Positions 4,332-57,841 of a stretch of DNA of 64,000 nucleotides are shown here, piece after piece. Numbering within the stretch: the first letter of the stretch is position 1; each line of letters begins with the position of its first letter. The notes below the pieces were generated by a model. That model worked only from the letters and a program-made list of their open reading frames with translations, did not search any database and was not told the DNA's origin. Source of the stretch: a virus; IMG/VR virus record IMGVR_UViG_3300010373_000007, positions 4,792 through 68,791 of that record. One strand, written 5' to 3'. A program made the position numbers and the translations under genes.

Positions 4332-5311
4332 AAGATCCCACCGGGATAGATCGACTGGCAGTAGCGGACCGCTCCGAACGCGAACTCCTGCGCAGCGGCT
4401 CCCGCGTTGGGGGTCACGGAGAACGCGGGCACGACGTTGACGTTGACGGGTAGATCGACGGTGATGTTCGACACGACCGCCTCGTTGATCAGGAACAGGG
4501 CCCGCGCGGTTCCCGCATCGTCGCGATTCGCCCCCACGAGGATCACGCGACAGCGGTAGACGGTGTTGGCCGTCGCGGTGATCCCGCTGCTGGACGTGTG
4601 CGTGACAGAACCCACGGCGGTCCGGCATTGCCACTGCGGGAAGGTGTTGTCCTTGTAGAAGTAGGCGCCGTTCCCCGTGTCGGGGGAATTTCCAGCTCCG
4701 GCGAAGCCGAACGCGTAGGTGATGTTGGCGAAGCCATCGGCGAAGACTGGGAAATCGACCGACGCCAGCGTGTCGTCTGTGAAGATCAACCCGGCCGAAT
4801 CGGGATCGAGATTCATGCTCACGGAGTCGTTGGCCACGATCCCGGTAGCGAATCGAATCGCCCTCTGCTGGACGAATGGGTTGCCGGCCACGAATCCGGC
4901 GCCTGGGGGGGGGTTGTCGATGGCCCCGGTGGTCCCGCCGAGCGCCTGGTGCCACCTCCCGACTTGGCGATTGCCCGGACCAGCGCCGTACACGTACTGC
5001 AAGCTGTGATCCCAGTTCTCCGTCCAACCATAGGTTGAAGTGCGCGAGAGGCCGAAGTGATCGTATCCAGAGATCGGTTGCCCCAGGGCATTCTCGTAGG
5101 CGATGAGGTTCTGGGTCCACTGGCTGGCGTTGGCGAATGGTGCCTGGAAATACGCCTCAAAGTCGACCGCAACCTTCGCCATCTGGGCCACCGATGCGGC
5201 GATGAGCGGATCGCCGTCTGCGGGCAGCGTGGCTTTGGGCGGCGTGCCGTCGACCGGCGGGTCGCTCGGTGCCTGCGTTGCGGTCGGGTCAGCGGTGTAC
5301 GTCGTGGCCAT
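4328..5311 (-). CDS. Distal tail protein, tail-fibre / receptor-binding candidate
   Basis: 327-aa ORF directly downstream of the baseplate genes. Pro/Thr/Ala-rich N-terminal linker followed by a beta-rich body. Call is by position only. Confidence 0.55.
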   Translation of the reverse strand: MATTYTADPTATQAPSDPPVDGTPPKATLPADGDPLIAASVAQMAKVAVDFEAYFQAPFANASQWTQNLIAYENALGQPISGYDHFGLSRTSTYGWTENWDHSLQYVYGAGPGNRQVGRWHQALGGTTGAIDNPPPGAGFVAGNPFVQQRAIRFATGIVANDSVSMNLDPDSAGLIFTDDTLASVDFPVFADGFANITYAFGFAGAGNSPDTGNGAYFYKDNTFPQWQCRTAVGSVTHTSSSGITATANTVYRCRVILVGANRDDAGTARALFLINEAVVSNITVDLPVNVNVVPAFSVTPNAGAAAQEFAFGAVRYCQSIYPGGIF

Positions 5312-13494: not shown

Positions 13495-14163
13495 GACGGC
13501 GCCGTCCCTTCTTCGGGGACTTCTTGACCTCGCGGGCCCCCAGGAACTGCGCGATCATGCCCTTGAGCATCCGAAGATCCGCGAAGTGGTCAAGCACCAT
13601 CTGCGCGCCCACGTCCCGCGCCGGCACGCTCACCCGCAGGTCGTCCGGGTCCGGGACGGTTTCCTCCAGGTCGTGGAGCAGGGCGCGCAGGGCGCGCGCG
13701 GCGATGACCGGATAGCGCCGCGCCTTCTCCGCGACGGCTAGAGTTTTTTTTGGATGGCCTCGGTCGAGTACCCGGTGACCCTGCAGATCTCCGAGGCGAT
13801 CATGGCGCCGATGAGAGCCCGCTTCGTCAGGAGCTTGACGATGTGCGGCTGGTACTCGGGGTAGAGGACGCAGGTCTTGACCAGGAACTCCTCGGCGATG
13901 TCGGTGTTGCCGAGCGCGCCGCGGTCCGCCTGCTCCCGGTACTGCTTCTGGTACTGGGAGATCTCCTGCTTCGACGCGGGCCGGTAAATGACCCAGTCGT
14001 GCGTCTTCTCGTGCTCGTAGTACCAGAGGTCGTCGGGGTCGATCCCGCGTCCCCGCGAGACGATCGCCTTGATCTCCTTGATGACGTCCTCGCCCGGCGG
14101 CGGAACAGAGTAGGCGGGCAGGCTGGGGGCTTCTTCCTGGGCTGGAACGGCGGCGTTGGTCAT
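13487..14163 (-). CDS. Tail assembly chaperone, -1 frameshift-extended form (gpGT-like)
   Basis: The -1 frame from the A8 tract (...PKKTLAVAEKARRYPVIAARALRALLHDLEE...) stays open to 13487 and overlaps the tape measure start. Confidence 0.6.
13738..14163 (-). CDS. Tail assembly chaperone (gpG-like)
   Basis: 141 aa between the tube and tape measure genes. Ends ...AIQKKL* on CAA AAA AAA CTC TAG. Confidence 0.75.
   Translation of the reverse strand: MTNAAVPAQEEAPSLPAYSVPPPGEDVIKEIKAIVSRGRGIDPDDLWYYEHEKTHDWVIYRPASKQEISQYQKQYREQADRGALGNTDIAEEFLVKTCVLYPEYQPHIVKLLTKRALIGAMIASEICRVTGYSTEAIQKKL
13744..13751 (-). promoter_or_regulatory. Slippery A AAA AAA site for programmed -1 frameshift
   Basis: T8 on the plus strand, which is A8 in the mRNA, two codons before the gpG-like stop. 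The -1 frame matches track ORF 13487..14200. Confidence 0.6.
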
Positions 14164-33754: not shown

Positions 33755-34621
33755 TCATGGGTTCACGGGGGTCCCGGCACACCGCTTGATGTCCTCCAGG
33801 GCGGCGGTGTTTGTGGCGTAGAAGTGCGGGGCGCGACCGGTGGAGGCTAGGTAGATCATCCGCCCCGCAACGGCCGAGTCGTACTTGACCTCCAGTTCAT
33901 AGCCGGGCTTCCCCGCGAGATGAATCGCCCACCCGGCGCGGCAATGGGTCGTTTCGCAGGAGTGCCAGTTGCCCATCTCCAGCTTGCCTTCACCGGACTC
34001 GATGACCGCTAGGATCTTCGCGTCGAGCGCTTCGACCACGGGAACGTCTGGGTGTTTCTCGCGGTAGCGCCTTGCCCGCTCCGCCGCCGTCCTGGCGCGG
34101 TTCGCCTCCCATTCTTCGCGGGTCTTCCGGGGCTGCGGCGCGCGGGCCAGGTCCGCGCCGGCCAGGTCCGCGCCGGCCAGGTACGCGTCGGCCAGGTCCG
34201 CGCGGGCCAGGTCCGCGCCGGCCAGGTCCGCGCCGGCCAGGTACGCGTCGGCCAGGTCCGCGCGGGCCAGGTTCGCGCCGGCCAGGTCCGCGCGGGCCAG
34301 GTTCGCGCCGGCCAGGTTCGCGCCGGCCAGGTCCGCGCCGGCCAGGTACGCGTCGGCCAGGTCCGCGTCGGCCAGGTTCGCGCCGACCAGGTCCGCGCCG
34401 GCCAGGTACGCGTCGGCCAGGTCCGCGCGGGCCAGGTTCGCGCGGGCCAGGTCCGCGCCGGCCAGGTCCGCGCCGGCCAGGTACGCGTCGGCCAGGTCCG
34501 CGCGGGCCAGGTTCGCGCCGGCCAGGTCCGCGCGGGCGCCAGATCGGCCACCGCTCGCCCGCCACTCCTTGTGCGCGGCCAGAATCTTCGTTAGTTGGTC
34601 CTTGCTAATGGTCATCATCAC
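33755..34621 (-). CDS. Pentapeptide-repeat protein with distinct C-terminal domain
   Basis: 288 aa. Has 26 consecutive A(D/N)LxG/A-type pentapeptides (ARADL AGANL ADAYL ...). C-terminal part includes GNWHSCETTHCRAGWAIHLAG. Confidence 0.9.
   Translation of the reverse strand: MMMTISKDQLTKILAAHKEWRASGGRSGARADLAGANLARADLADAYLAGADLAGADLARANLARADLADAYLAGADLVGANLADADLADAYLAGADLAGANLAGANLARADLAGANLARADLADAYLAGADLAGADLARADLADAYLAGADLAGADLARAPQPRKTREEWEANRARTAAERARRYREKHPDVPVVEALDAKILAVIESGEGKLEMGNWHSCETTHCRAGWAIHLAGKPGYELEVKYDSAVAGRMIYLASTGRAPHFYATNTAALEDIKRCAGTPVNP
34148..34537. repeat. 15-bp periodic coding repeat array with exact long internal duplications
   Basis: Printed 60-mers 34141-34200, 34201-34260 and 34441-34500 are identical. 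Identity continues so that 34201-34296 matches 34441-34536. Confidence 0.85.
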
Positions 34622-39641: not shown

Positions 39642-40526
39642 CTATTCGGAGGCGCCCGGCTCGGCCAGTTCTAGTGAGATTTCAACCTTGCCGCAGGCTT
39701 TCGTTGCCTTGGCCGGGTCGCCCTTGCAGAAGACCAGTACATTCTGGTGGGTCTTCCCTAGTTTGCGACCGGCGGCGAACTGGCGTCCGGCCCGGATGCT
39801 CAACGACCCGACGGCCGTCACCAAGATCGCTTCGTTGTAGAGCCGCGCGCCAGCCGCCTCGAACGCCAGCTCCGTGTCTCGCACGAAGCCGCGATAGAAG
39901 CCTTTGCGGTCCCGAAAATCTCCCACGACGATACATGCGAAGCGATCCTGGCGGAGTTGCGCGACGCTCGCCGCGATGATCTGCCGGTACTTCTCGGCGA
40001 ACGCGTCGTAGCCGAGCGTCGACAGGTCTCGCGGGTCGTCGCTGTAGACCTCCAGGTCACCGTACGGCGGACAGGTGAACACGAAGTCGACCTGCCCTGG
40101 AGCCAGCGCCGCCACGTCGACCGAATCGCCAACGATCCAGATCGGCGCATGGTTGCCACAGATCACCTTCCCCTGCTGTCGGTTGGCCGATACCTGCTCC
40201 TCTCGAAGATCAATCCCGACGTACTTCCGGCCGACCTTGGAGGCGACGATTCCGCGCACGCTGCCGCCAGCGAACGGGTCGAGGACAGTTCCGCCCTTGG
40301 GCGAGAACCAGAGATAGGCCAGCTCGCAAAGGACGGGATCGAAGATCGACGTCCCGCTGGCAGCATTCAGAATGCTGCCAGCCTCCGTATTGGAGGTGTT
40401 GCCGGGTGGATTGAAGGCTCCCTTTTTCTTCACGCGCTGCCCCCCCCTACAACGTGCTCGCCGCGCATCAGGTCTTGCCCGAACGTACGCCCGAACTGCT
40501 TCACAGCGGATGCCCCGCTCCGTCAC
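39642..40526 (-). CDS. DNA methyltransferase (amino-MTase; motif I DPFAGGS, motif IV TCPPY)
   Basis: GTG start. ...TSIFDPVLCELAYLWFSPKGGTVLDPFAGGSVRG...VFTCPPYGDLEVYSDD.... Confidence 0.8.
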   Translation of the reverse strand: MTERGIRCEAVRAYVRARPDARRARCRGGQRVKKKGAFNPPGNTSNTEAGSILNAASGTSIFDPVLCELAYLWFSPKGGTVLDPFAGGSVRGIVASKVGRKYVGIDLREEQVSANRQQGKVICGNHAPIWIVGDSVDVAALAPGQVDFVFTCPPYGDLEVYSDDPRDLSTLGYDAFAEKYRQIIAASVAQLRQDRFACIVVGDFRDRKGFYRGFVRDTELAFEAAGARLYNEAILVTAVGSLSIRAGRQFAAGRKLGKTHQNVLVFCKGDPAKATKACGKVEISLELAEPGASE

Positions 40527-41292
40527 CGCGCATGATCTTGCCGTTCCGCCCGAGCTTCATCGCCGGCCTCGGGTTGCCGCCGGGGCTTTCTCGCCCCCTC
40601 CTTACGTGAGCGTTCTTCGCTCGATCCAGCGGCATCGGCCCCCCCCCAATCGGGGCGGTTCGGCCAAGCTCCGACTTGATGCCGAGCGAGAGCCATGCCC
40701 GCTTGCGCTCTTGCCAGTAGCCCTGTCGCGCGTCGAGCACCGAGAAGGGCGGAACCAGGAACTGCTCGGCTAGGCTGCCGGGAGGCGCGTCAGGCGTCGC
40801 CGGCGTGACGAGCGCGGCCCATTGCTCGCCGTCAAGGCCGGTGCCGAGGAGCCCGTCGGTGGCGACTACCTCGCGGAGGAGCGCGGCCAAGCCGTCCTCG
40901 TCACGCTCGGCGAGGTTGCCTACCTCGTTGTCGATCGCGACCAGCTTCAGGGCGCGCGGGTCGCTGGGCGCGAGCGGGAGGCGGCGCGCGCTGATCTTCT
41001 TGCGACCGGCGCGGCGGGCGGCCTTGACCACGCCGTGGCCCATGAGGATCGTCCCCTCGCGGGCGATGACGACATTCTTGTAGACGCCGGCGACCCGCAT
41101 CGCCTCCTCGATGTGCTCGATCTGGGCGTCGGGATGCTGCTTGTAGTTGCGCGGGTGATCCTTGAGGGAGGCCAGTGCCACCAGCTCCGTCGGCGTCTCC
41201 TCCAGCTCGGCCCCGGGGATGGGCTTCGACTTCCTCGCCTCGGCTTCTTTCGGCAAGGCCCCAGGATGCACCCGGTTTGACCGCGCGCGCAA
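40501..41292 (-). CDS. ParB-like nuclease-domain protein (N-terminal part of a ParB-methyltransferase architecture?)
   Basis: The track start is TTG, so the true start is uncertain. LKDHPRNYKQHPDAQIEHIEEAMRVAGVYKNVVIAREGTILMGHGVVKAARRAG is a ParB N-terminal domain. FSVLDARQGYWQERKRAWLSLGI follows. The last ~40 aa look like shadow. Confidence 0.7.
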   Translation of the reverse strand: MRARSNRVHPGALPKEAEARKSKPIPGAELEETPTELVALASLKDHPRNYKQHPDAQIEHIEEAMRVAGVYKNVVIAREGTILMGHGVVKAARRAGRKKISARRLPLAPSDPRALKLVAIDNEVGNLAERDEDGLAALLREVVATDGLLGTGLDGEQWAALVTPATPDAPPGSLAEQFLVPPFSVLDARQGYWQERKRAWLSLGIKSELGRTAPIGGGPMPLDRAKNAHVRRGRESPGGNPRPAMKLGRNGKIMRGDGAGHPL

Positions 41293-42100: not shown

Positions 42101-42619
42101 TCAGAACGGGCAGCCCTCGTCCCATCGCCAGGTGTGGAAGCCAGGGCGCTCCCACCGGCCGTAGACCAAGATCATCAGATCCTTCGGGTACGGGTCCTTC
42201 TGGCCGACGAACTTGAGGCGGGGGCGAATCGGCTCGACGAGCGCCTTCCCCTCGACGTGGTCTGCGAACCAGTTCGTCCCCACCGCGGCCTGGACGAGGA
42301 CGGTTATCGCCCCAGGCATCGACGTGGCCTGCTCGGCGCACTTCTTCACGAACGGCGCGACGTTCCCGTGCGGCGGGTTCAGGAACCAGTGGCCCATGAC
42401 CACGCCGCGCTCGGGGAGCATCGCCCAGTCGACCGCCAGGGCGTCCTCGCCAAGCTGAGATCCGGGCCCCAGCCACTGCTCGCAAACCCGGTTCTCTTGG
42501 TTGGCGGCCAGGTCCAGGTTGATGGGTCCGAAGCGGTCGACGAGCGCCGCCAGGAACTCCGGCGGCGTCCCGACATCCTGCTTCGAGCGGTGGCGGTTCA
42601 GCCCGGCTCCGGTCTTCAT
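42101..42619 (-). CDS. Phage Dam-like N6-adenine DNA methyltransferase homologue with NPPH motif
   Basis: ATG 42619 in an ATGA overlap, 172 aa. VGTPPEFLAALVDRFGPINLDLAA...WFLNPPHGN...ITVLVQAAVGTNWF.... Confidence 0.65.
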   Translation of the reverse strand: MKTGAGLNRHRSKQDVGTPPEFLAALVDRFGPINLDLAANQENRVCEQWLGPGSQLGEDALAVDWAMLPERGVVMGHWFLNPPHGNVAPFVKKCAEQATSMPGAITVLVQAAVGTNWFADHVEGKALVEPIRPRLKFVGQKDPYPKDLMILVYGRWERPGFHTWRWDEGCPF

Positions 42620-42789
42620 GACGCCTCCTGTGGCGTAGTCCTGCGGATCGCTTCGCGCATCGGCACCGCGTCGCGCCTTGTGTTCTCGTCGCACCACTGC
42701 TCGGCGGCCGCCCGAAGCTCCTCGGGGCTGAAGGTGCCCAGGCCGATCTGGGCCAGGGTGGCAGCGATGACGTGGTAGTTCGGGCACAT
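42616..42789 (-). CDS. Small hypothetical protein
   Basis: 57 aa from an internal ATG (MCPNYHVIAATLAQ...). Confidence 0.4.
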   Translation of the reverse strand: MCPNYHVIAATLAQIGLGTFSPEELRAAAEQWCDENTRRDAVPMREAIRRTTPQEAS

Positions 42790-48181: not shown

Positions 48182-48922
48182 TCACTTGACGACCTCGAAC
48201 GAGAGCGCCCAGACCATCGGGTTGTCCCGGAACGACTGCTCCCCGTTGAGGACCTTCCAGAGCGCGAAGAAGGCGCCGCGCGCGGTCGGCTCGGCAACGC
48301 CATCGCGGTCGCTCCGCCAGCCATCGTCGCCCGGGATCATCCCCTCGGCGCGCGCGTCCTCCTCGCTGATCTCGGTGAGGCGCTGGGCGCGGACCTCGGT
48401 GATCTTGAGCGTCAGGCGCGACGCCCAGCGCGGAAGGAAGATGCCGGGGCGCCACTTTCGATCGGCCGCCTTCTGGTCGATGGCGAAGTTGCTCGGCTCG
48501 CTCAACGTCGACCAGGTATCGCTCAGCCGGCCCGCCCACTCGGATGGGATCGTCTCACACAGCCGTCGCGAATCATCGGCTCGGTACCGAATGAACGGAT
48601 AACCGTCCTCGGTCCAATCGGCGTACTGCCAGGCTTCGCGGACCCAAAGGTGGTCGCCGATACGAATCCTCGACCAAGCCACTAGTCCGCGCGGCCACGG
48701 CATGATCCGCGTTCCCTTCCAGGCCCACCCGATCTGCTTCTCGTCCCCTGCTTCTTCCGGTAACAATCCAGCGCCAGCGCACGCCTTGAGCGTATCGAAC
48801 GCAGTCTGGTCCATGATCGACTGCTCGGGCTGGGGATTCAGCAGCCGCCGCGTCTGGGTCTTTCGGCCCGTGAGGATGGCTCGGATCATTGGAGGCGAAA
48901 ACAGGATCGGCCGCTCGGTCAT
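48182..48922 (-). CDS. ASCH-like (PUA-fold) phage protein
   Basis: ATG 48922 in an ATGA overlap, 246 aa. MTERPILFSPPMIRAILTGRKTQTRR is the typical N-terminus of this prophage family. Confidence 0.6.
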   Translation of the reverse strand: MTERPILFSPPMIRAILTGRKTQTRRLLNPQPEQSIMDQTAFDTLKACAGAGLLPEEAGDEKQIGWAWKGTRIMPWPRGLVAWSRIRIGDHLWVREAWQYADWTEDGYPFIRYRADDSRRLCETIPSEWAGRLSDTWSTLSEPSNFAIDQKAADRKWRPGIFLPRWASRLTLKITEVRAQRLTEISEEDARAEGMIPGDDGWRSDRDGVAEPTARGAFFALWKVLNGEQSFRDNPMVWALSFEVVK

Positions 48923-49797
48923 CGTGGGAATTCCCTGATGCGGATGTCCTCCGGCCACTCGGCCATGTCGCCGCCGTGATTTGGATCCTTCTCCAGCCGG
49001 AGGCGGTTCAAGCCCTCGGCGTGCCTCGCGTTGACCCCGAGTTGCTTCCAGAACGGGTGCACGCCGTCCCGGCGCATCGCGCGCGTCAAGGCGCGGCCCC
49101 AGTCCAGAACGAACGGGCGCGCGCCCGCCCCGCTCTCACCGCCGATGATTCCCCAGTGGATATCGCGGAGATCGACCGACTCATGGATCGGTCCGATCAG
49201 CGGCTCGAACGACGCGAACCGAACAATCGCCGGGATCTGCCGCAGGATCGGGATCCGAGATGTCGCTGCCTCGTCTTCGACCGTCGTCCCGATCCAGACG
49301 TTCGGCCACGGGTCGCAGCCGCGCCCACCATCCGCGATGTCGCAGAAGTCCTCGCCGCAGCAAACCCCGTCGCGCATCGACGCCTTGCAGGTGACGTTCC
49401 CGCATCCTTCGGGCGTCCACGGGAGCATCCGCGCGACGTTCTCCGGCCGCTTGGTGAGCAGCATCCAGTCGAGGTTCGGCGTCGCCAGGATGAGGCGCCA
49501 GAGGCGCTCGCGCTCGACCAGGAGGTCGACGCGGTCCTCGAACACGTCCGCCATCGACGCGCAGAACACACGCTGGCGTCGACCCTCGCCGCCGGCCTTG
49601 GCGTTCCACTTGAGCGGCTCCCGCCAGTGGTTCTCGCCGAAGAACCGGCGCGGCGCGCGCGGCCCCCAGTCGGCGCGCCCTAGGCGCTTGTCGAACGCCT
49701 CCGCGTAGCAGTGTTCGCAGCCCTTCGACACGCGCTGGCAGCCCCACCACGGGTTGAACGTCGAATCGGCCCAAGCGATCTTGGTCTCGGCTCCCAT
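48919..49797 (-). CDS. Phage Gp37/Gp68 family protein (DUF5131)
   Basis: KIAWADSTFNPWWGCQRVSKGCEHCYAE is the family signature. An extra Cys-rich insert follows (CGNVTC...CCGEDFC). Confidence 0.8.
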   Translation of the reverse strand: MGAETKIAWADSTFNPWWGCQRVSKGCEHCYAEAFDKRLGRADWGPRAPRRFFGENHWREPLKWNAKAGGEGRRQRVFCASMADVFEDRVDLLVERERLWRLILATPNLDWMLLTKRPENVARMLPWTPEGCGNVTCKASMRDGVCCGEDFCDIADGGRGCDPWPNVWIGTTVEDEAATSRIPILRQIPAIVRFASFEPLIGPIHESVDLRDIHWGIIGGESGAGARPFVLDWGRALTRAMRRDGVHPFWKQLGVNARHAEGLNRLRLEKDPNHGGDMAEWPEDIRIREFPR

Positions 49798-52472: not shown

Positions 52473-52953
52473 CGCGTGCCTTCCGTTCGGCGTCCAAGCT
52501 CACGGTCTCCCGTTGGTCGGCGATCAGCTCGTCGAACTCGGGTCGGTGCTGCTCCACGAGCTTCGCGATCGCAAAGAGCTGGCGCGCGAGGTCCCTCGTC
52601 CGCTCCGCCCGCTTACCGCCGCCGTAGCCGTCGCCGACGGAATGGATCCGGTGGCCCCAGGCCCCGCCGCCCGATGAGATCTCGCGCTCCATCGCTGAGA
52701 TCGGGTTCTCCTCCCAGGTGTTCGGGTAGCGCTTCAGCGTGTCGTAGCAGGTCAGGCACGTCGTCATCGCGGTCCGACGCTCGCCGAGCTTCTTCAGGCG
52801 GGCGTTGAACTCGTCGCGCGTCAGTGCCGACAGGCGGAGGTTGTCGAGCGGGAGGCCGCATTGGGTCAGGTCAGCCGTATTCCAAGGAAGGGAGATCCGC
52901 TTGATGTGCTGGATCGTCACGTCGTCTTCGTCCGCCGCTTCTTGGTCGCTCAT
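52438..52953 (-). CDS. Hypothetical protein
   Basis: 171 aa, acidic N-terminus. Confidence 0.55.
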   Translation of the reverse strand: MSDQEAADEDDVTIQHIKRISLPWNTADLTQCGLPLDNLRLSALTRDEFNARLKKLGERRTAMTTCLTCYDTLKRYPNTWEENPISAMEREISSGGGAWGHRIHSVGDGYGGGKRAERTRDLARQLFAIAKLVEQHRPEFDELIADQRETVSLDAERKARDVSSRRGPGRR

Positions 52954-53528
52954 ATCGTTCCCCCTGCGGCCCGCACGTCCCAGTGCGCCCGCCCGTCATC
53001 GGTGAGCCCGTCCCAGTAGTAGCTCGCGAACCGGACCAGCTTGGCGCGCAGCTCGCGCTGGCCGTCGCGCCCGAGAGCGACGTACCAGGGGGCCTTCCCG
53101 CCCTCCTTGCCGTCGATCGCCTTGTGGTGCTTCCGGCAGAGCGGCGCCGTCTTGTCGTCCGGCGCGCGCCGCCAGCCGCCGGTCCCGGTTGCGCCGCGAT
53201 CCCCGATGTGGGCGACCTCGATCCCGGACCAGTACGTCCCGCGACCGCAGGCCGTCGCAGCTTCGACCAGATGCGGCTCGATGTTCCCCGTCAGCGCAAT
53301 ATCCCGCAGGATGCACCAGAGGCTCGCGTAGAACGCCATCCGGCCGCGCTCCCTGGGCCGTCGCGCGTGCCTTGTCCCATCGGGGGCGACCGGCGGCGGG
53401 AGGGCGAGGGCGGCCTTGGCGGCGCGGCGGGAGGCCCTGGCGGCGATCTCGGCGCGGGGACGGCGGCGCGCGCGCAAGGGGCTCGGTTTCTTCTCCCGCT
53501 TGACCGGCTTCGGCTGGGGGCGGATCAA
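52950..53528 (-). CDS. DUF968/HNH-like nuclease candidate
   Basis: 192 aa, basic N-terminus. ...IEVAHIGDRGATGTGGWRRAPDDKTAPLCRKHHKAIDG fits the AH...G.K..D...PLC..HH pattern. Confidence 0.55.
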   Translation of the reverse strand: MIRPQPKPVKREKKPSPLRARRRPRAEIAARASRRAAKAALALPPPVAPDGTRHARRPRERGRMAFYASLWCILRDIALTGNIEPHLVEAATACGRGTYWSGIEVAHIGDRGATGTGGWRRAPDDKTAPLCRKHHKAIDGKEGGKAPWYVALGRDGQRELRAKLVRFASYYWDGLTDDGRAHWDVRAAGGTI

Positions 53529-53954: not shown

Positions 53955-55709
53955 CTAGCTCATCTCCGCCTGGCCCGCGCCGCTCTGGTCCGCCCAGAAT
54001 GGGGTCTGGGTCCCGTCGAGAAGCTTGAACACCTTCCCCTCCTTGCCGGCGTCTACGATCCTACCGAGCGTGTAGTCCGAGTCGTAGCAGTTCTTTCGCA
54101 CGTCGAACTTCGTGAGCGCGACGAAGCGCGTGACGCTCATGTCGGTTCGGTTCTTGGCGGCCGCCATGTAGGTCCCCCACTTGAAGCTGTCTGGGCTGGA
54201 GACACCGAACGCGGGCGCTATCACAACCGCCTTCGTCGCCACGTTCCCGATGTCCTTCGCGCCCGAGAAGTCCTCCAGGTTCGGGATGATCGACTCCTTT
54301 GCGCGGTCGCTCTTTCGGAGGTGCGCCACCACGATCACGGGGACGCGCGCGCCGAGCGCGCAGGCGGCGAGCTTCTTCGCGAGCTTGCTCGCCGCTCGGA
54401 TCTCGTTGTCGCGCTCGTCCTCGCCCCCGACGTAGTGGAAGTGGTCGAGCACCACTAGGTCGGCCTCGTCCTGGATCGCCTCGAACTGCACCTGGAAGTC
54501 GTTCGAGGTGAACGAATCCTCCCGGTAGAACGTGCGGAGGTTCTCCAGCGCGGTCTCCATCTCCTGGTCGGCCTCGTCCTCGAACTGCCCCAGCACGCCG
54601 TCGAGGTCACCGCTCACCCAGTCCTGATATCGGATCGGCTTCGTCCCGATGCGCCGGTAGTACATGTTCGCGATCGCCTGGTACTTCATGCGGCGCTCGA
54701 TCTCGCGGTCCTCCGCCTCCAGCGCGAAGTAGAAAACCCGCTTGCCGCGCCGGCAGTTCGCCATCGACGTAATCGCCGCGAGTTGCGTCTTCCCCGTCCC
54801 CGACTTGGCCCCGTAGAGCACCACGTCTGTGCGGGTGATGCCGCCCAGGGCCTGGTCGAGGAACGGGACCCCGAACGTCATCCGATCCTTGCCCGCCGCT
54901 AGGCGCGCGGCGCGCTCGCCAGAGAGGCGCGATGTCGCCGGCTTGAACGTCTGCGGGATCTTCCCCGGCGCCGCCGCCACCAGCCGCTCAAGCTCGACGC
55001 GCGTCCCGCCCTTCGCGATCCAGTCGGAGACGTCCCCCTTCGCCGGCAGGCCCGGCAGTTCCACGACCTTCACCCAGGCGGCGATCCCGCCGAGCGCCTT
55101 CGCGACGATCGCGGCGTGGGCGGCGCCCGGTTGGTCGTTGTCCGGGAGGATCGCAACACCGCGCCCGCGCAGCGCCGCCGAGTAGTCGTCCCGCCACTTC
55201 CCCGCGCCTCCGACGTTCGTGGTCGCCAGGAGCCCGAGCCGCTCTAGGTTGTCGGCGTCCTTCTCGCCCTCGACGACGAACGCGATCCGGTCCTTCGGCG
55301 CCTTCGAGATCTCGGGGAGGTGGTACAGGACGCGGCGCGCGCCGTCCATGGTCCACTTCCAGCCGCCCCGCCCGTCCGGCTGCCGCTGCCGGAAGGTCTT
55401 CGGGACCATCCTCACGACCTCGTAGAGCAGCGCCCCCTTCTCGTCCTGGTAGGCGTAGCGCGCCGCCACGTCGTTCCCAGCCGAGTCGCGATCGGGGAAT
55501 AGGTCCGACATCGCCATCTCAAGGTCCTCGACGATGCTCTCCGTCTCGCATCCGGCATGGCAGTTCAGGAGCACCCGGCCGTCGTCCCCCTCCTTCACGC
55601 TCAGGCTCGCCTGGCGGTCGTCGTGGCTCGGGCACTTCGCCATCCAGGCCCGGGGCCCGACGCCCTTGACCCCTTCGAGGCGCGACACGAACTGGTCGGC
55701 TGGTTTCAT
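53955..55709 (-). CDS. Bifunctional primase-helicase (zinc finger + TOPRIM + DnaB/RecA-type NTPase)
   Basis: 584 aa. CPSHDD...CHAGC, TOPRIM VVEGEKDADNL...DNDQPG, Walker A GAKSGTGKT and Walker B LVVLDH. Confidence 0.9.
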   Translation of the reverse strand: MKPADQFVSRLEGVKGVGPRAWMAKCPSHDDRQASLSVKEGDDGRVLLNCHAGCETESIVEDLEMAMSDLFPDRDSAGNDVAARYAYQDEKGALLYEVVRMVPKTFRQRQPDGRGGWKWTMDGARRVLYHLPEISKAPKDRIAFVVEGEKDADNLERLGLLATTNVGGAGKWRDDYSAALRGRGVAILPDNDQPGAAHAAIVAKALGGIAAWVKVVELPGLPAKGDVSDWIAKGGTRVELERLVAAAPGKIPQTFKPATSRLSGERAARLAAGKDRMTFGVPFLDQALGGITRTDVVLYGAKSGTGKTQLAAITSMANCRRGKRVFYFALEAEDREIERRMKYQAIANMYYRRIGTKPIRYQDWVSGDLDGVLGQFEDEADQEMETALENLRTFYREDSFTSNDFQVQFEAIQDEADLVVLDHFHYVGGEDERDNEIRAASKLAKKLAACALGARVPVIVVAHLRKSDRAKESIIPNLEDFSGAKDIGNVATKAVVIAPAFGVSSPDSFKWGTYMAAAKNRTDMSVTRFVALTKFDVRKNCYDSDYTLGRIVDAGKEGKVFKLLDGTQTPFWADQSGAGQAEMS

Positions 55710-56440
55710 TTCCCACCCAAGTTACGCCCGAATAATCGCCGCTCGGCCTCTTCGAGGTCGCCGCCGGGCGCCGGCGCCGCGTGAACGCGCGCCTCGTTCG
55801 GGTCCTGGAGGTACCTCCCATCGCTGAGCCATGTGCGGACGTGCGGGTAGTGGAACCAATCGGCTTTCCACTCGGCCGACGCCTCCCAAAGCTTCCACGC
55901 GGCACCGAACCTGGGGCGGCCAGCCTTCTCCCAGAACGTGCACGCCTTGTCCTTCGACCCCGTCCTGGCGGTCTGGCTCCACTCGGCCTCGAACTCCGCG
56001 GGGTAGCTCGTTCGGGGGAGCGTCGGCGCGCGCCTAGATCTCTTCGTTGTAGGGATCTGGATCTCTCTCTGATCCGGTCGGATCAAGACCAGATCGAGTA
56101 CCCCGGATAGACCCCCCCCCAAAGCCCCCCCCCTTCCGGGGGAGGGCGCTATAGGTAGCGGGCTCCCGCGGGCCTGCCCGATACCTGTAGCGGGCGACCG
56201 AACCATCAGCCCGGCATTAGTAGCGGGCGGAATGACTTCACCCGCTATAGGTAGCGGGCTAGCGTTCTTTGGAATGGGGTCGCCCTTGCGCCAGATCGAC
56301 CCCGCGCGGACCGCCTGGTCGCTGGTCCAGCGGCTCTCGCACGCCTCGCAGACGTGGCGCCGCACGGGGGCCTTTCCAGGGACCGTTCGGATGGTCCCAG
56401 TGCGGTCGCTCCCGCAGACCGGGCAGGTCATTTGGTCCAT
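55706..56440 (-). CDS. Zinc-ribbon replication-initiator-like protein
   Basis: ATG 56440, 244 aa. CPVCGS...CEAC. C-terminal FEAEW...FWEKAG...AWKLW...YPHVRTWLSDGRYLQD resembles a common phage replication-module domain. Iterons lie inside the gene. Confidence 0.55.
   Translation of the reverse strand: MDQMTCPVCGSDRTGTIRTVPGKAPVRRHVCEACESRWTSDQAVRAGSIWRKGDPIPKNASPLPIAGEVIPPATNAGLMVRSPATGIGQARGSPLPIAPSPGRGGALGGGLSGVLDLVLIRPDQREIQIPTTKRSRRAPTLPRTSYPAEFEAEWSQTARTGSKDKACTFWEKAGRPRFGAAWKLWEASAEWKADWFHYPHVRTWLSDGRYLQDPNEARVHAAPAPGGDLEEAERRLFGRNLGGK
55719..55728 (-). promoter_or_regulatory. GGCGTAACTT box
   Basis: 12 nt before primase-helicase ATG 55709. Lies inside the 3' end of the initiator-like gene. 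Confidence 0.3.
56037..56095. repeat. Cluster of six GATC sites
   Basis: GATC at 56037, 56054, 56060, 56071, 56081 and 56092, all within 59 nt. Confidence 0.7.
56112..56133. repeat. Two C9 (coding-strand G9) homopolymer tracts 4 nt apart
   Basis: C9 at 56112-56120 and at 56125-56133. They encode GRGGALGGGL. Confidence 0.8.
56147..56260. repeat. Four in-phase iterons (core GTAGCGGGC)
   Basis: Cores at 56155, 56187, 56220 and 56251, spaced 32, 33 and 31 nt. The outer two share an 18-mer, CGCTATAGGTAGCGGGCT. Confidence 0.75.
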
Positions 56441-56850
56441 GGCCCGACGTTCGGGGCGTGGTCGATGGCGCAACCGAATCCGGCGATCTCCATCGGCGAC
56501 ATGACGGCCCAGTCGCCGTCGTCGTGGTCCGGATCCTCCGCCGCAAGGGCGCTCACGACTCCAATCACGAAGTCGATGTTCGCGGCGTCGAGCGTGCTCA
56601 AGAGGACCTTCAGCCGGTCGATCTTCTTGGTCACCAGGCCGTGGCAGTCCTCGCAGACCGTCGCGAGCTGTTCGTCTCCGTACTCCCAGGGAGCCAGGTC
56701 CCGCAGGTAGAAGTTGTGGTGGACGTTCAGCGTCTTGTCGGTGGCTCGACAGAGCCGACACGCGAATCCGTCCCGCTGCATGATCTCCAGCCGCTTCCGC
56801 TGCCAGCGAGGATCCTTCAGGAGCGCGGCGTAGGCGTTACGCGATGCCAT
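56428..56850 (-). CDS. HNH endonuclease
   Basis: 140 aa. DPRWQRKRLEIMQRDGFACRLC...LNVHHNFY...PWEY...VCEDCH. Confidence 0.7.
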   Translation of the reverse strand: MASRNAYAALLKDPRWQRKRLEIMQRDGFACRLCRATDKTLNVHHNFYLRDLAPWEYGDEQLATVCEDCHGLVTKKIDRLKVLLSTLDAANIDFVIGVVSALAAEDPDHDDGDWAVMSPMEIAGFGCAIDHAPNVGPWTK

Positions 56851-57007
56851 CGCGGTTCCCGTCCGGCGCCAGCGACTCCCACGCGCGGTCGATGAGCCGA
56901 TCCAGCTCCTCGACGCGGGCGCTGCGCTCGGGGGTGAACTCCTCGCCGACGATCGCGTCTCGCTCGGCCTCCCAGGCGCAGATCCGGTCCCGAATGTCGT
57001 CGGGCAT
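56837..57007 (-). CDS. Small hypothetical protein (56 aa, below track cutoff)
   Basis: ATG 57007 preceded by GGAGG. MPDDIRDRICAWEAERDAIVGEEF... with high GC3. Confidence 0.4.
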   Translation of the reverse strand: MPDDIRDRICAWEAERDAIVGEEFTPERSARVEELDRLIDRAWESLAPDGNRDGIA

Positions 57008-57025
57008 CTCAGCCTCCGAACGCGA

Positions 57026-57113
57026 GAAAGCCGCTCTGCGGACCCCGCCCCGTCCGATTCACGATCGCTTGCTGAGGGCGACGGGATAGGACGAGGACCG
57101 CAGAACGGCTTTC
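57026..57113. repeat. 19-nt inverted repeat with 50-nt spacer
   Basis: GAAAGCCGCTCTGCGGACC (57026-57044) pairs with GGACCGCAGAACGGCTTTC (57095-57113); 17 of 19 positions are complementary. Confidence 0.65.
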
Positions 57114-57152
57114 AGGCGTGATCATGAGTTGTCGGCACCCTCAGCGTCAAGG

Positions 57153-57162
57153 ACGTTACGCC
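57153..57162 (-). promoter_or_regulatory. GGCGTAACGT box
   Basis: In the 178-nt gap. Sits 30 nt from the next box, in direct orientation. Confidence 0.35.
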
Positions 57163-57182
57163 GGACGAGCCACGAGGTCTAG

Positions 57183-57192
57183 GACTTACGCC
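57183..57192 (-). promoter_or_regulatory. GGCGTAAGTC box
   Basis: Its TAA is the stop of 57186..57389. Confidence 0.35.
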
Positions 57193-57389
57193 CGACCGCC
57201 CCCGCTGGCGCCCTTGGCGGCCTCCAGGAGGCAGCTCCGGCAGATGGCGAATCGGTGGAGGATCACGCAGTTGGACGGCTGCTCCACGAGGAGCTTCGCC
57301 GCCACGCGGACCCGGTAGGTGTTGCAGACGTCGCAGCTCTGCCCCTCCCGCTTGCTGTGGCGGCGGGAGAGGAGCAGCAGGCGCGCCAT
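57186..57389 (-). CDS. Small zinc-ribbon protein
   Basis: ATG 57389 in a TGATG overlap, 67 aa. CDVC...CRSC. Confidence 0.5.
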   Translation of the reverse strand: MARLLLLSRRHSKREGQSCDVCNTYRVRVAAKLLVEQPSNCVILHRFAICRSCLLEAAKGASGGGRA

Positions 57390-57841
57390 CAGCCGCCGAA
57401 CGGGTCGGACCCGCCCCCCATGGGATCGCCGTCGTCGTCGCCAGGCGTGCGCTCCCGCTTGAACGGGTCGTCGGTGGTGCCGGCCGCGGGCTCCGTGGGC
57501 TTCTCGGCGGGCTTGCGGCTCGACCCCTCGACCTCGAATTTGGCGGGGCGCAGGGCGGGGATCCAGACCTCGTAGCCGTCGACCTTGACGTCGTTCCGGC
57601 TCTTGTCCTGGAGCTTCTCGCTCTCGATCTTCCCCGTGAACTGGACCCGCTGCCCCACGCGGAGGTCGCGCTGCATGTCCCCGATCAAGATCCGATCGAA
57701 GCACTTCATGTCCAATTCCGGTGGGTGCGGCGGCGAGTTCACCTTCAGCCTGACGGCGGCGAACTTCCCCGTGGGGGAGATGAACAGCCGCTTGATGGTC
57801 CCGACGATCCGGAAGCCGGCCCCCTCCTGCCAGGAGGCCAT
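57389..57841 (-). CDS. SSB-like OB-fold protein with acidic/DPF tail
   Basis: ATG 57841 in a TGATG overlap, 150 aa. Beta-rich core and a C-terminal ...GDDDGDPMGGGSDPFGG. The upstream 440 aa of the track ORF are shadow. Confidence 0.55.
   Translation of the reverse strand: MASWQEGAGFRIVGTIKRLFISPTGKFAAVRLKVNSPPHPPELDMKCFDRILIGDMQRDLRVGQRVQFTGKIESEKLQDKSRNDVKVDGYEVWIPALRPAKFEVEGSSRKPAEKPTEPAAGTTDDPFKRERTPGDDDGDPMGGGSDPFGG

Follow-up and report, generated by a model that had tools for sequence, protein, structure and literature searches.

What is the function of a block of repeats, guanine runs and GATC sites that lies inside a protein coding sequence of a phage? The block is found in a 64,000-nucleotide (nt) stretch of IMG/VR virus record IMGVR_UViG_3300010373_000007 (positions 4,792 to 68,791 of the record). 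This stretch is termed the window; all coordinates refer to the 64-kb window, and the evidence is computational throughout. The open reading frame concerned encodes an initiator-like protein with an N-terminal zinc ribbon, a disordered linker and a helical C-terminal domain (C-domain). The block is probably the iteron replication origin of the phage, situated within the disordered-linker codons of its own initiator gene, and the gene would represent a new initiator family. The gene and the elements of the block, in order on the coding strand, are as follows.

55706..56440, minus strand: initiator-like gene of 244 codons, from the open reading frame and its translation, which reads GRGGALGGGL through the runs
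56240..56259, minus strand: box 1, GCCCGCTACCTATAGCGGGT, the first box in coding-strand order, a partial palindrome, translated S-P-L-P-I-A-G
56208..56228, minus strand: box 2, GCCCGCTACTAATGCCGGGCT, translated P-A-T-N-A-G, in a codon phase unlike that of boxes 1 and 4
56175..56195, minus strand: box 3, GCCCGCTACAGGTATCGGGCA, translated P-A-T-G-I-G
56144..56163, minus strand: box 4, GCCCGCTACCTATAGCGCCC
56112..56142, minus strand: GC-rich element, C5-GGAA-G9-CTTT-G9 on the coding strand
56034..56096, no strand assigned: GATC block, candidate DNA unwinding element, with six GATC sites, four of them 10-11 nt apart
56023..56036, no strand assigned: tract of alternating (CG)n, with the coding-strand sequence TAGGCGCGCGCCGA and the basic translation RSRRA

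The sequence GTAGCGGGC is present in exactly four exact copies across the 64 kb, all on the plus strand (positions 56155, 56187, 56220 and 56251), with copy-to-copy spacings of 32, 33 and 31 nt. Copies with one mismatch elsewhere in the window are scattered and number 35, as compared with 28.7 expected by chance. An 18-mer, CGCTATAGGTAGCGGGCT, is common to the outer copies (56147-56164 and 56243-56260). The four phased repeats of the original prediction are therefore borne out with respect to positions, spacings and shared outer 18-mer, and they are above chance. Each box is a partial palindrome of about 18-20 bp, e.g. CCCGCTACCTATAGCGGG. The half-sites, read on the coding strand, are GCCCGCTAC-C-TATAGCGGG, GCCCGCTAC-TAATGCCGGGC, GCCCGCTAC-AGG-TATCGGGC and GCCCGCTAC-C-TATAGCGCC. 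Centre-to-centre distances in coding strand order are 31, 33 and 32 nt, i.e. approximately three helical turns. There is no second box cluster in the 64-kb window, and isolated half-site copies are scattered elsewhere.

Word-indexed searches with the protein sequence gave one homolog, P0001 (57% identity), on a 924-nt contig (L001). An exhaustive HMMER search yielded 110 cluster representatives, 36 of them at E<1e-10. DNA was obtained for twelve further loci, so that thirteen related genes (25-60% protein identity) could be compared as DNA; the loci are designated below by L numbers, and L004, whose protein is the same as that of L003, was left out. No relatives were found in IMG/VR contigs, GTDB genomes and 50,697 GenBank phages, and the metagenome contigs of the Joint Genome Institute gave one locus only.

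The closest relative, L001, keeps four boxes with the CCGCTAC core of the window boxes, a C6-N6-G6-TA-G7 element and four GATC sites. Between the window and L001 the boxes are 71-85% identical, as compared with 25-36% for the inter-box spacers. The original prediction had named homologs that keep the protein and lose the DNA repeats as the observation that would speak against it. What is found is that L001 retains the boxes, the C/G runs and four GATC sites, and that distant relatives retain the architecture. The distant members are each 24-40% identical to the window protein and have boxes of their own, mostly palindromes around a central CCGG (ACGCTACCGGTAGCGT in L006, GGCAACCGGTTGCC in L009, GGCCACCGGTGGCC in L010 and CCACTGCCGGCAGTGG in L005), spaced 21-22, 30-33 or 42 nt centre to centre, distances that correspond to whole helical turns. 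All eleven genes of this layout have one order of elements: boxes, an optional C5-6, the G-run pair, a CT-rich stretch, the GATC cluster, the (CG)n tract and the C-domain.

Some members have no linker. In P0032 and P0050 the ribbon is fused directly to the C-domain; the linker is therefore dispensable for the protein. A look for a displaced module in the region upstream of the linker-less gene of L012 (P0032, 309-812) gave only CGTCGAG repeats. P0044 also passes from ribbon to C-domain without the linker module, and P0039, P0053 and P0060 display the ribbon and a DLILISGSDP-type linker on unrelated C-terminal domains. As judged from these sequences, the initiator family is modular.

The entire block sits in linker codons, where the GC content of third codon positions (GC3) is 0.4-0.75 (codons 56-135), as compared with 0.85-1.0 in the folded domains. 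The one box core is translated in two codon phases, as PLP (boxes 1 and 4) or as PAT (boxes 2 and 3), and the boxes are built with rare codons (CTA, GCT, CCT and ATA, each 1-5% of its codon family in the genome). When the linker was resampled synonymously 20,000 times, four copies of CCCGCTAC never arose, and a second G-run of at least 9 was obtained 63 times. Across 11 genes, the ratio of Asp GAT to GAC codons is 36:5 in the segment and 23:62 in the folded domains (p=6e-11); the segment is also enriched in Gly GGG codons (p=5e-5) and Ser TCT codons (p=2e-4). Because the elements lie in different codon phases and are built of rare synonymous codons, the codon evidence argues that selection is acting on the linker DNA rather than on the peptide.

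The G-run pair corresponds to plus-strand C9 runs at 56112-56120 and 56125-56133. Single G/C runs of at least 9 are unremarkable at 69% GC (4 in the window, 2.25 expected per simulation); a pair of such runs, each at least 9 and within 30 nt, was obtained in 0 of 200 first-order Markov simulations. In the family, the pair (G6-9, 1-4 nt, G7-9) is present in 9 of 12 full-length genes, the window included, and L005 has a single G6 in its place. Ten members have such runs, and in every one the G-runs are carried by the coding, non-template strand; the pair is found across all three codon phases among the family genes. A conserved TCTGYCTTC follows it. Around the pair, 31 identical nt are common to L006 and L013, and 27 nt to L001 and L007; with the exception of L001, the proteins of these loci are each only 32-36% identical to the window protein. 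Since the pair occurs in all codon phases, and as identical nt in diverged proteins, the conserved peptide GGVGGGL appears to be a by-product of the DNA element, and the conserved SDPDP peptide likewise appears to derive from a DNA element.

On this comparison no other DNA element of the module is as well conserved as the G-run pair. Its role may be that of a GC-rich boundary. In P1 oriR a GC-rich spacer separates GATC repeats from iterons (in the order GATC repeats, GC-rich spacer, iterons), and the G-run pair may act as this spacer does. More speculatively, the pair may form an R-loop or G-quadruplex on the non-template strand, similar to CSB II, the second conserved sequence block (PMC3488243). 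A hairpin at the C5/G9 element was also considered: single-strand DNA folding of the block is no better than that of shuffles on both strands (z -0.97 to +0.28), so the hairpin is unsupported, and no more than 5 of 11 relatives have the upstream C-run. Elsewhere in the window, long homopolymers occur at 4905-4913 (G9), 40440-40447 (C8), 40639-40647 (C9) and 13744-13751 (T8).

The GATC sites of the adjoining block are at 56037, 56054, 56060, 56071, 56081 and 56092. The six clustered sites noted earlier (56037-56095) are the unique GATC maximum of the window, the only place with at least five GATC per 62-nt frame, and 100 nt of the window contain 0.89 on average. When a fixed segment of 120 nt ahead of the C-domain is compared with its contig background, each of the 11 genes tested has an excess of GATC (combined p=6e-22 by the Fisher method). 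The clusters are kept even in contigs that avoid GATC, where the frequency outside the gene is 0.06-0.28 per 100 nt. A perfect palindrome, TGATCCGACCGGATCA, lies inside the block at window positions 56070-56085 (56356-56371 by coding-strand numbering). A palindrome of the form GATCC-N0-4-GGATC recurs in the GATC block of relatives, being exactly GATCCGGATC in L002, L005, L006 and L011; it might be a discrete protein-binding site rather than mere clustered GATC.

The GATC block also has the lowest computed duplex stability. By nearest-neighbour free energy, the 40-bp duplex that begins at 56034 ranks first in low stability among all 63,960 of the window, and segments of 60 bp and 100 bp at the block rank second and third, respectively, in low stability among distinct segments. 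Of 10 relatives, 8 have the weakest 40-mer of their gene in the corresponding segment, and in the remaining two this segment is fourth. Most members carry a CGCGCG-type tract after the GATC block; a DNA-level and a protein-level cause for it were inseparable in this analysis.

The window also contains a gene for a methyltransferase.

42101..42787, minus strand: phage Dam-family N6-adenine methyltransferase (PF05869, E=7.5e-18)

The Dam-like methyltransferase gene of the original prediction is thereby confirmed, and its product is a possible modifier of the GATC block. Phage Dam methylation could be the way in which the GATC sites act, as it is at origins that depend on Dam (PMC6090056); alternatively, they could be no more than a part of the unwinding element. 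As a separate matter, GATC is over-represented window-wide (570 sites, 410 expected from shuffles) and strongly avoided in the contigs of several relatives (L007, L008, L002, L009 and L013); this excess in the window and avoidance in relatives suggests differing host restriction/methylation pressures.

Searches for other signals gave little. A near-consensus DnaA box, TATCCACA, follows the G-runs in L011 only and is not a family feature. An Rfam search of 55000-57500 gave only a sub-threshold sbcD RNA (19.5 bits, cut-off 40, E=0.64), and a promoter and terminator scan of 55400-57100 found none.

The protein was analyzed for predicted structure/function domains with an AlphaFold2 model built on a 28-sequence alignment. 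Confidence is given as the predicted local distance difference test (pLDDT).

56276-56440, minus strand: zinc ribbon, amino acids (aa) 1-55, pLDDT 86-97
56021-56275, minus strand: disordered linker, aa 56-140, pLDDT about 47-56
55796-56020, minus strand: helical C-terminal domain, aa 141-215, pLDDT 92-97

Within the linker, the residues predicted as disordered run from about 61 to 135 (pLDDT about 50). The ribbon is of the NrdR type. Zn_ribbon_NrdR (PF22811) is matched in 13 of 28 family members (best 4.4e-14); the match of the window protein itself (E=1.1e-4) is below the Pfam cut-off. A family hidden Markov model searched against the PDB matches Streptomyces coelicolor NrdR (7p37_A, E=2.2e-6), and in a Foldseek search with the ribbon the top 12 matches are all NrdR, with a root mean square deviation of about 1 Å over 45 residues. 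No match to the ATP-cone is found in any of the 28 members. Because the ATP-cone is missing and the ribbon is followed by a disordered linker and an unrelated helical domain, the protein is, on the sequence and model evidence, not an NrdR; it has the DNA-binding module alone in common with it.

The C-domain is suggestive of replication. In this domain the phrog_270 family, "replication initiation protein", is matched in 27 of 28 members; a further "replication initiation protein" family, phrog_9474, is matched in 13 of 28, and a "primosomal protein" PHROG in 10 of 28. The C-domain weakly matches predicted structures (BFVD) of phage replisome organizers, a RepA-like initiator and DnaD. The Pfam family of lambda O (Phage_rep_O) gives no match in the window protein or in any of the 28 members. 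It should be noted that a public gene call on the window's own 68.8-kb contig (P0002, 56083-56440) is 126 aa long, with a TTG start inside the GATC block (LIRPDQ...). The gene caller broke the open reading frame at the low-GC3 linker, and the full 244-codon frame matches full-length homologs.

The gene next to the initiator is as follows.

53955..55709, minus strand: primase-helicase with Toprim and DnaB_C domains (Pfam DnaB_C, 1.5e-13; phrog_239 "DNA primase/helicase", 8.9e-43)

The 244-codon zinc-ribbon gene is indeed directly upstream of the primase-helicase gene, the start of which overlaps the initiator stop by 4 nt. The next gene downstream, usually overlapping, is a primase-helicase in the window and L001, a DnaB in L012 and a DnaC-like loader in L011. 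In L002, L003, L005, L006, L007 and L009 it is DUF6475/phrog_10105. Because the same slot holds a helicase or DnaC-like loader in other members, DUF6475 is by position a candidate helicase-loading partner. The coordinates of DUF6475 (PF20081) are 4708-5316 in L002, 2728-3333 in L003, 4738-5325 in L005, 938-1546 in L009, 1661-2164 in L006 and 4723-5064 in L007. By analogy, the initiator together with the downstream helicase or loader gene is a module of the lambda O-P type.

The window as a whole is phage DNA, with genes for a terminase, a GH25 lysin, a 5′-3′ exonuclease, an HNH nuclease and the primase-helicase; its terminase has 30% identity or less to any known phage. An HNH endonuclease-like gene (56428-56850, minus strand, phrog_119, E=1.7e-13) overlaps the initiator start by 13 nt, and a second HNH/RecA-dependent-nuclease-like open reading frame is at 52950-53528. 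A DUF5131 protein (PF07505, E=3e-66) is encoded in the early region at 48919-49797 (minus strand). At 34139-34537 a 15-nt unit, CGCGCCGGCCAGGTC, is present in 26.6 tandem copies with 88% identity; it lies inside the minus-strand open reading frame 33755-34621 and would therefore encode a pentapeptide-repeat stretch.

The origin reading is favored because phased, unique and conserved boxes lie beside the weakest duplex, in a gene whose product has a DNA-binding ribbon and a replisome-organizer-like domain and which has a helicase gene next door. An origin inside the initiator gene, in the manner of lambda O, had been the central proposal of the original prediction; it is supported by these features of duplex and protein and, in addition, by the L001 footprint and the codon and frame statistics. 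The process would be as follows. The N-terminal NrdR-type ribbon of the gene's own product would bind the four boxes, which, being three turns apart, would present the same face of the DNA. The resulting nucleoprotein complex would strain the adjacent DNA, with the G/C-run element serving as a stiff GC-rich boundary, and the duplex would open in the neighbouring GATC/CT-rich block. The C-terminal replisome-organizer-like domain may then recruit the primase-helicase encoded by the next, overlapping gene, as the gene order in the family suggests. Speculatively, GATC methylation by the phage Dam may tune melting or the binding of factors.

Several observations weigh against the origin reading. 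The G-runs are absent from L003 and L010. The GATC cluster, conserved in 11 of 12 loci, is reduced to a single site in L013. In synonymous resampling of the window alone, the linker peptide and genome codon usage give a mean of about 4.3 GATC, from which the six found do not differ significantly; because the window alone is not significant, the case for GATC rests on family position and the codon tests. With about 50-60% GC, the weakest-duplex segment differs from a classical AT-rich region. The match of the window protein itself to phrog_270 is weak (E=0.0026), and a PDB fold search with the C-terminal domain found no solved structural relative. GC skew, suggested as a check in the original prediction, was plotted across the window at 1-kb resolution and gave no extremum and no origin signal at 56 kb; nearly all window genes are on the minus strand, and because the genes lie on one strand the skew is uninformative. 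Finally, the phage contig (68.8 kb) reaches beyond the window, and another origin is possible.

A bolder version of the proposal takes the G-run pair, TCTGYCTTC and the GATC block as the sequence-specific firing element of a whole undescribed family of phage origins. A structure formed by the G-runs would open or prime the adjacent weak duplex and so couple firing to initiator expression, and the NrdR-type ribbon on the phased boxes would give specificity. This version is rated as unlikely.

The boxes by themselves could be accounted for by an autoregulatory operator or roadblock, through which the NrdR-like ribbon represses its own gene and the primase-helicase without any origin function. 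The ribbon is homologous to a repressor, box size and spacing fit those of NrdR boxes (PMC13584703), and the window has no further exact copy of the nine-base core. An operator would leave the G-run pair, the CT-rich stretch, the GATC block and the weakest duplex unexplained, however, and the C-domain matches replication-initiator and replisome-organizer families and no regulator domains. There is no promoter-like site in or near the block, and a location 180-300 nt into the coding region is unusual for an operator. An operator without an origin is thus a distinctly unlikely explanation; the two roles are in any case compatible, as initiator-bound origins commonly autoregulate too. Another proposal starts from the runs, two in-frame C9/G9 tracts (GRGGALGGGL) that the original prediction correctly described and held to be slippage-prone. 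Slippage of polymerase or ribosome would yield a truncated product, the ribbon with part of the linker, that modulates the full-length protein, with a secondary part left to the repeats and GATC sites. In its favor are the length and in-frame position of the homopolymers, the variation in run length from G6 to G9 among relatives, and the +1/-1 products, which would have 118-135 aa in the window and, in several relatives, about 100-125 aa. Against this, none of the ten members with runs has them out of frame, and in L006, L008, L009 and L011 one shifted frame or both can be read on for another 40-126 codons, so that a short slippage product is not conserved. A switch of this kind does not require a constant run pair followed by conserved TCTGYCTTC, and it leaves the phased boxes and the weak duplex unexplained. 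The slippage part of the claim is unsupported, and a slippage switch appears highly improbable.

If only the protein mattered, the block would merely encode a low-complexity disordered linker with PLP, PAT, GG.GGG and SDPDP peptides, and its DNA would be functionless. The linker is indeed predicted to be disordered, GGVGGGL-like and SDPDP-like peptides recur in many members, and the GATC count of the window fits the peptide sequence. Yet one DNA core is translated in differing codon phases, both inside a single gene and from gene to gene, codon choice is strongly biased toward the DNA motifs, blocks of 27-31 nt are identical between far-diverged members, GATC clusters persist in GATC-avoiding contigs, and members without a linker exist. 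This explanation is scarcely credible, and the frame and codon tests have largely refuted it already. A cis site of another kind, which happens to fall in the gene, has the smallest probability of the explanations considered. Phased clusters of protein-binding repeats are known also at pac, parS and attP arm sites, so that a packaging, partition or recombination site could show this appearance. The terminase gene is 28 kb distant, however, and integrases, where present, are about 1-3 kb upstream and non-adjacent. The module accompanies the initiator gene in phage backgrounds that are unrelated, and a helicase or loader gene always follows it.

If the block is an origin, as preferred here, it would be a testable one for an uncultivated high-GC phage lineage. 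The family, with about 110 cluster representatives, would be a new group of initiators that reuses the DNA-reading module of NrdR for origin recognition. The linker would be a clear case of a coding region with a second, non-protein code, and this bears on the annotation of conserved motifs in disordered linkers. The conserved G-run pair would add an unexplained origin element. The arrangement is classical; the initiator family, the NrdR-type reader and the conserved G-run/GATC module appear to be undescribed, as no description of them was found in the literature and no relatives among GenBank phages.

The features of the block may be compared with those of known systems. The G/C runs of mitochondrial CSB II and ColE1 RNA II resemble the window in having two adjacent G-runs on the non-template strand of a transcribed region beside an origin (here a candidate one); in those systems the origin is primed by transcription. 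The CSB II sequence is of the G6AG8 type. The likeness to CSB II is in sequence form and position only, and the window phage differs in having its own primase. With Dam-dependent origins (E. coli oriC, V. cholerae ori2 and P1 oriR) the window shares a GATC cluster far above background beside candidate initiator sites, with several sites one turn apart. V. cholerae ori2 requires Dam methylation (PMC6090056), and the window phage encodes a predicted Dam-family methyltransferase. A difference is that L013 keeps the module with one GATC.

NrdR has a homologous N-terminal zinc ribbon, and its boxes are 16-bp partial palindromes with 15-16 bp between them (PMC13584703). The likeness extends to the targets, candidate ones in the window: they are partly palindromic over about 16-20 bp, with centres about 31-32 bp apart (PMC13584703). 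In contrast to NrdR, the window protein has no ATP-cone and has a C-terminal domain of the replication type; its boxes have another sequence, are four and not two in number, and are intragenic beside an unwinding-type element.

In SPP1, oriL lies within gene 38, with direct repeats and an unwinding element inside the gene of the replisome organizer G38P, and loader and helicase genes follow (PMC6316719). The C-domain model of the window protein weakly matches predicted "replisome organizer" structures. Unlike G38P, the window protein has no detectable similarity to any GenBank phage and has a different DNA-binding domain. SPP1 also has a second origin, oriR, whereas a single box cluster is found in the 64-kb window.

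The closest parallel in layout is with lambda. Lambda O has an N-terminal part that binds ori and a C-terminal part that recruits the helicase system, and the same two-part layout is proposed for the window protein. The lambda ori is mid-gene O, and lambda and Stx origins have at least four iterons, each internally dyad-symmetric, and after them a tract that melts easily, with the next gene acting in helicase loading (PMC7466680). The window protein, however, has no sequence relationship to O, and its DNA-binding domain is a four-cysteine zinc ribbon of the NrdR type. The boxes are spaced by about three turns in the window and about two in lambda, and the candidate melting tract is GATC/CT-rich in a 69% GC genome rather than AT-rich. 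In the window family a conserved G-run pair stands between the boxes and the melting tract, and the partner gene in the window encodes a primase-helicase fusion in place of the P-type loader of lambda.

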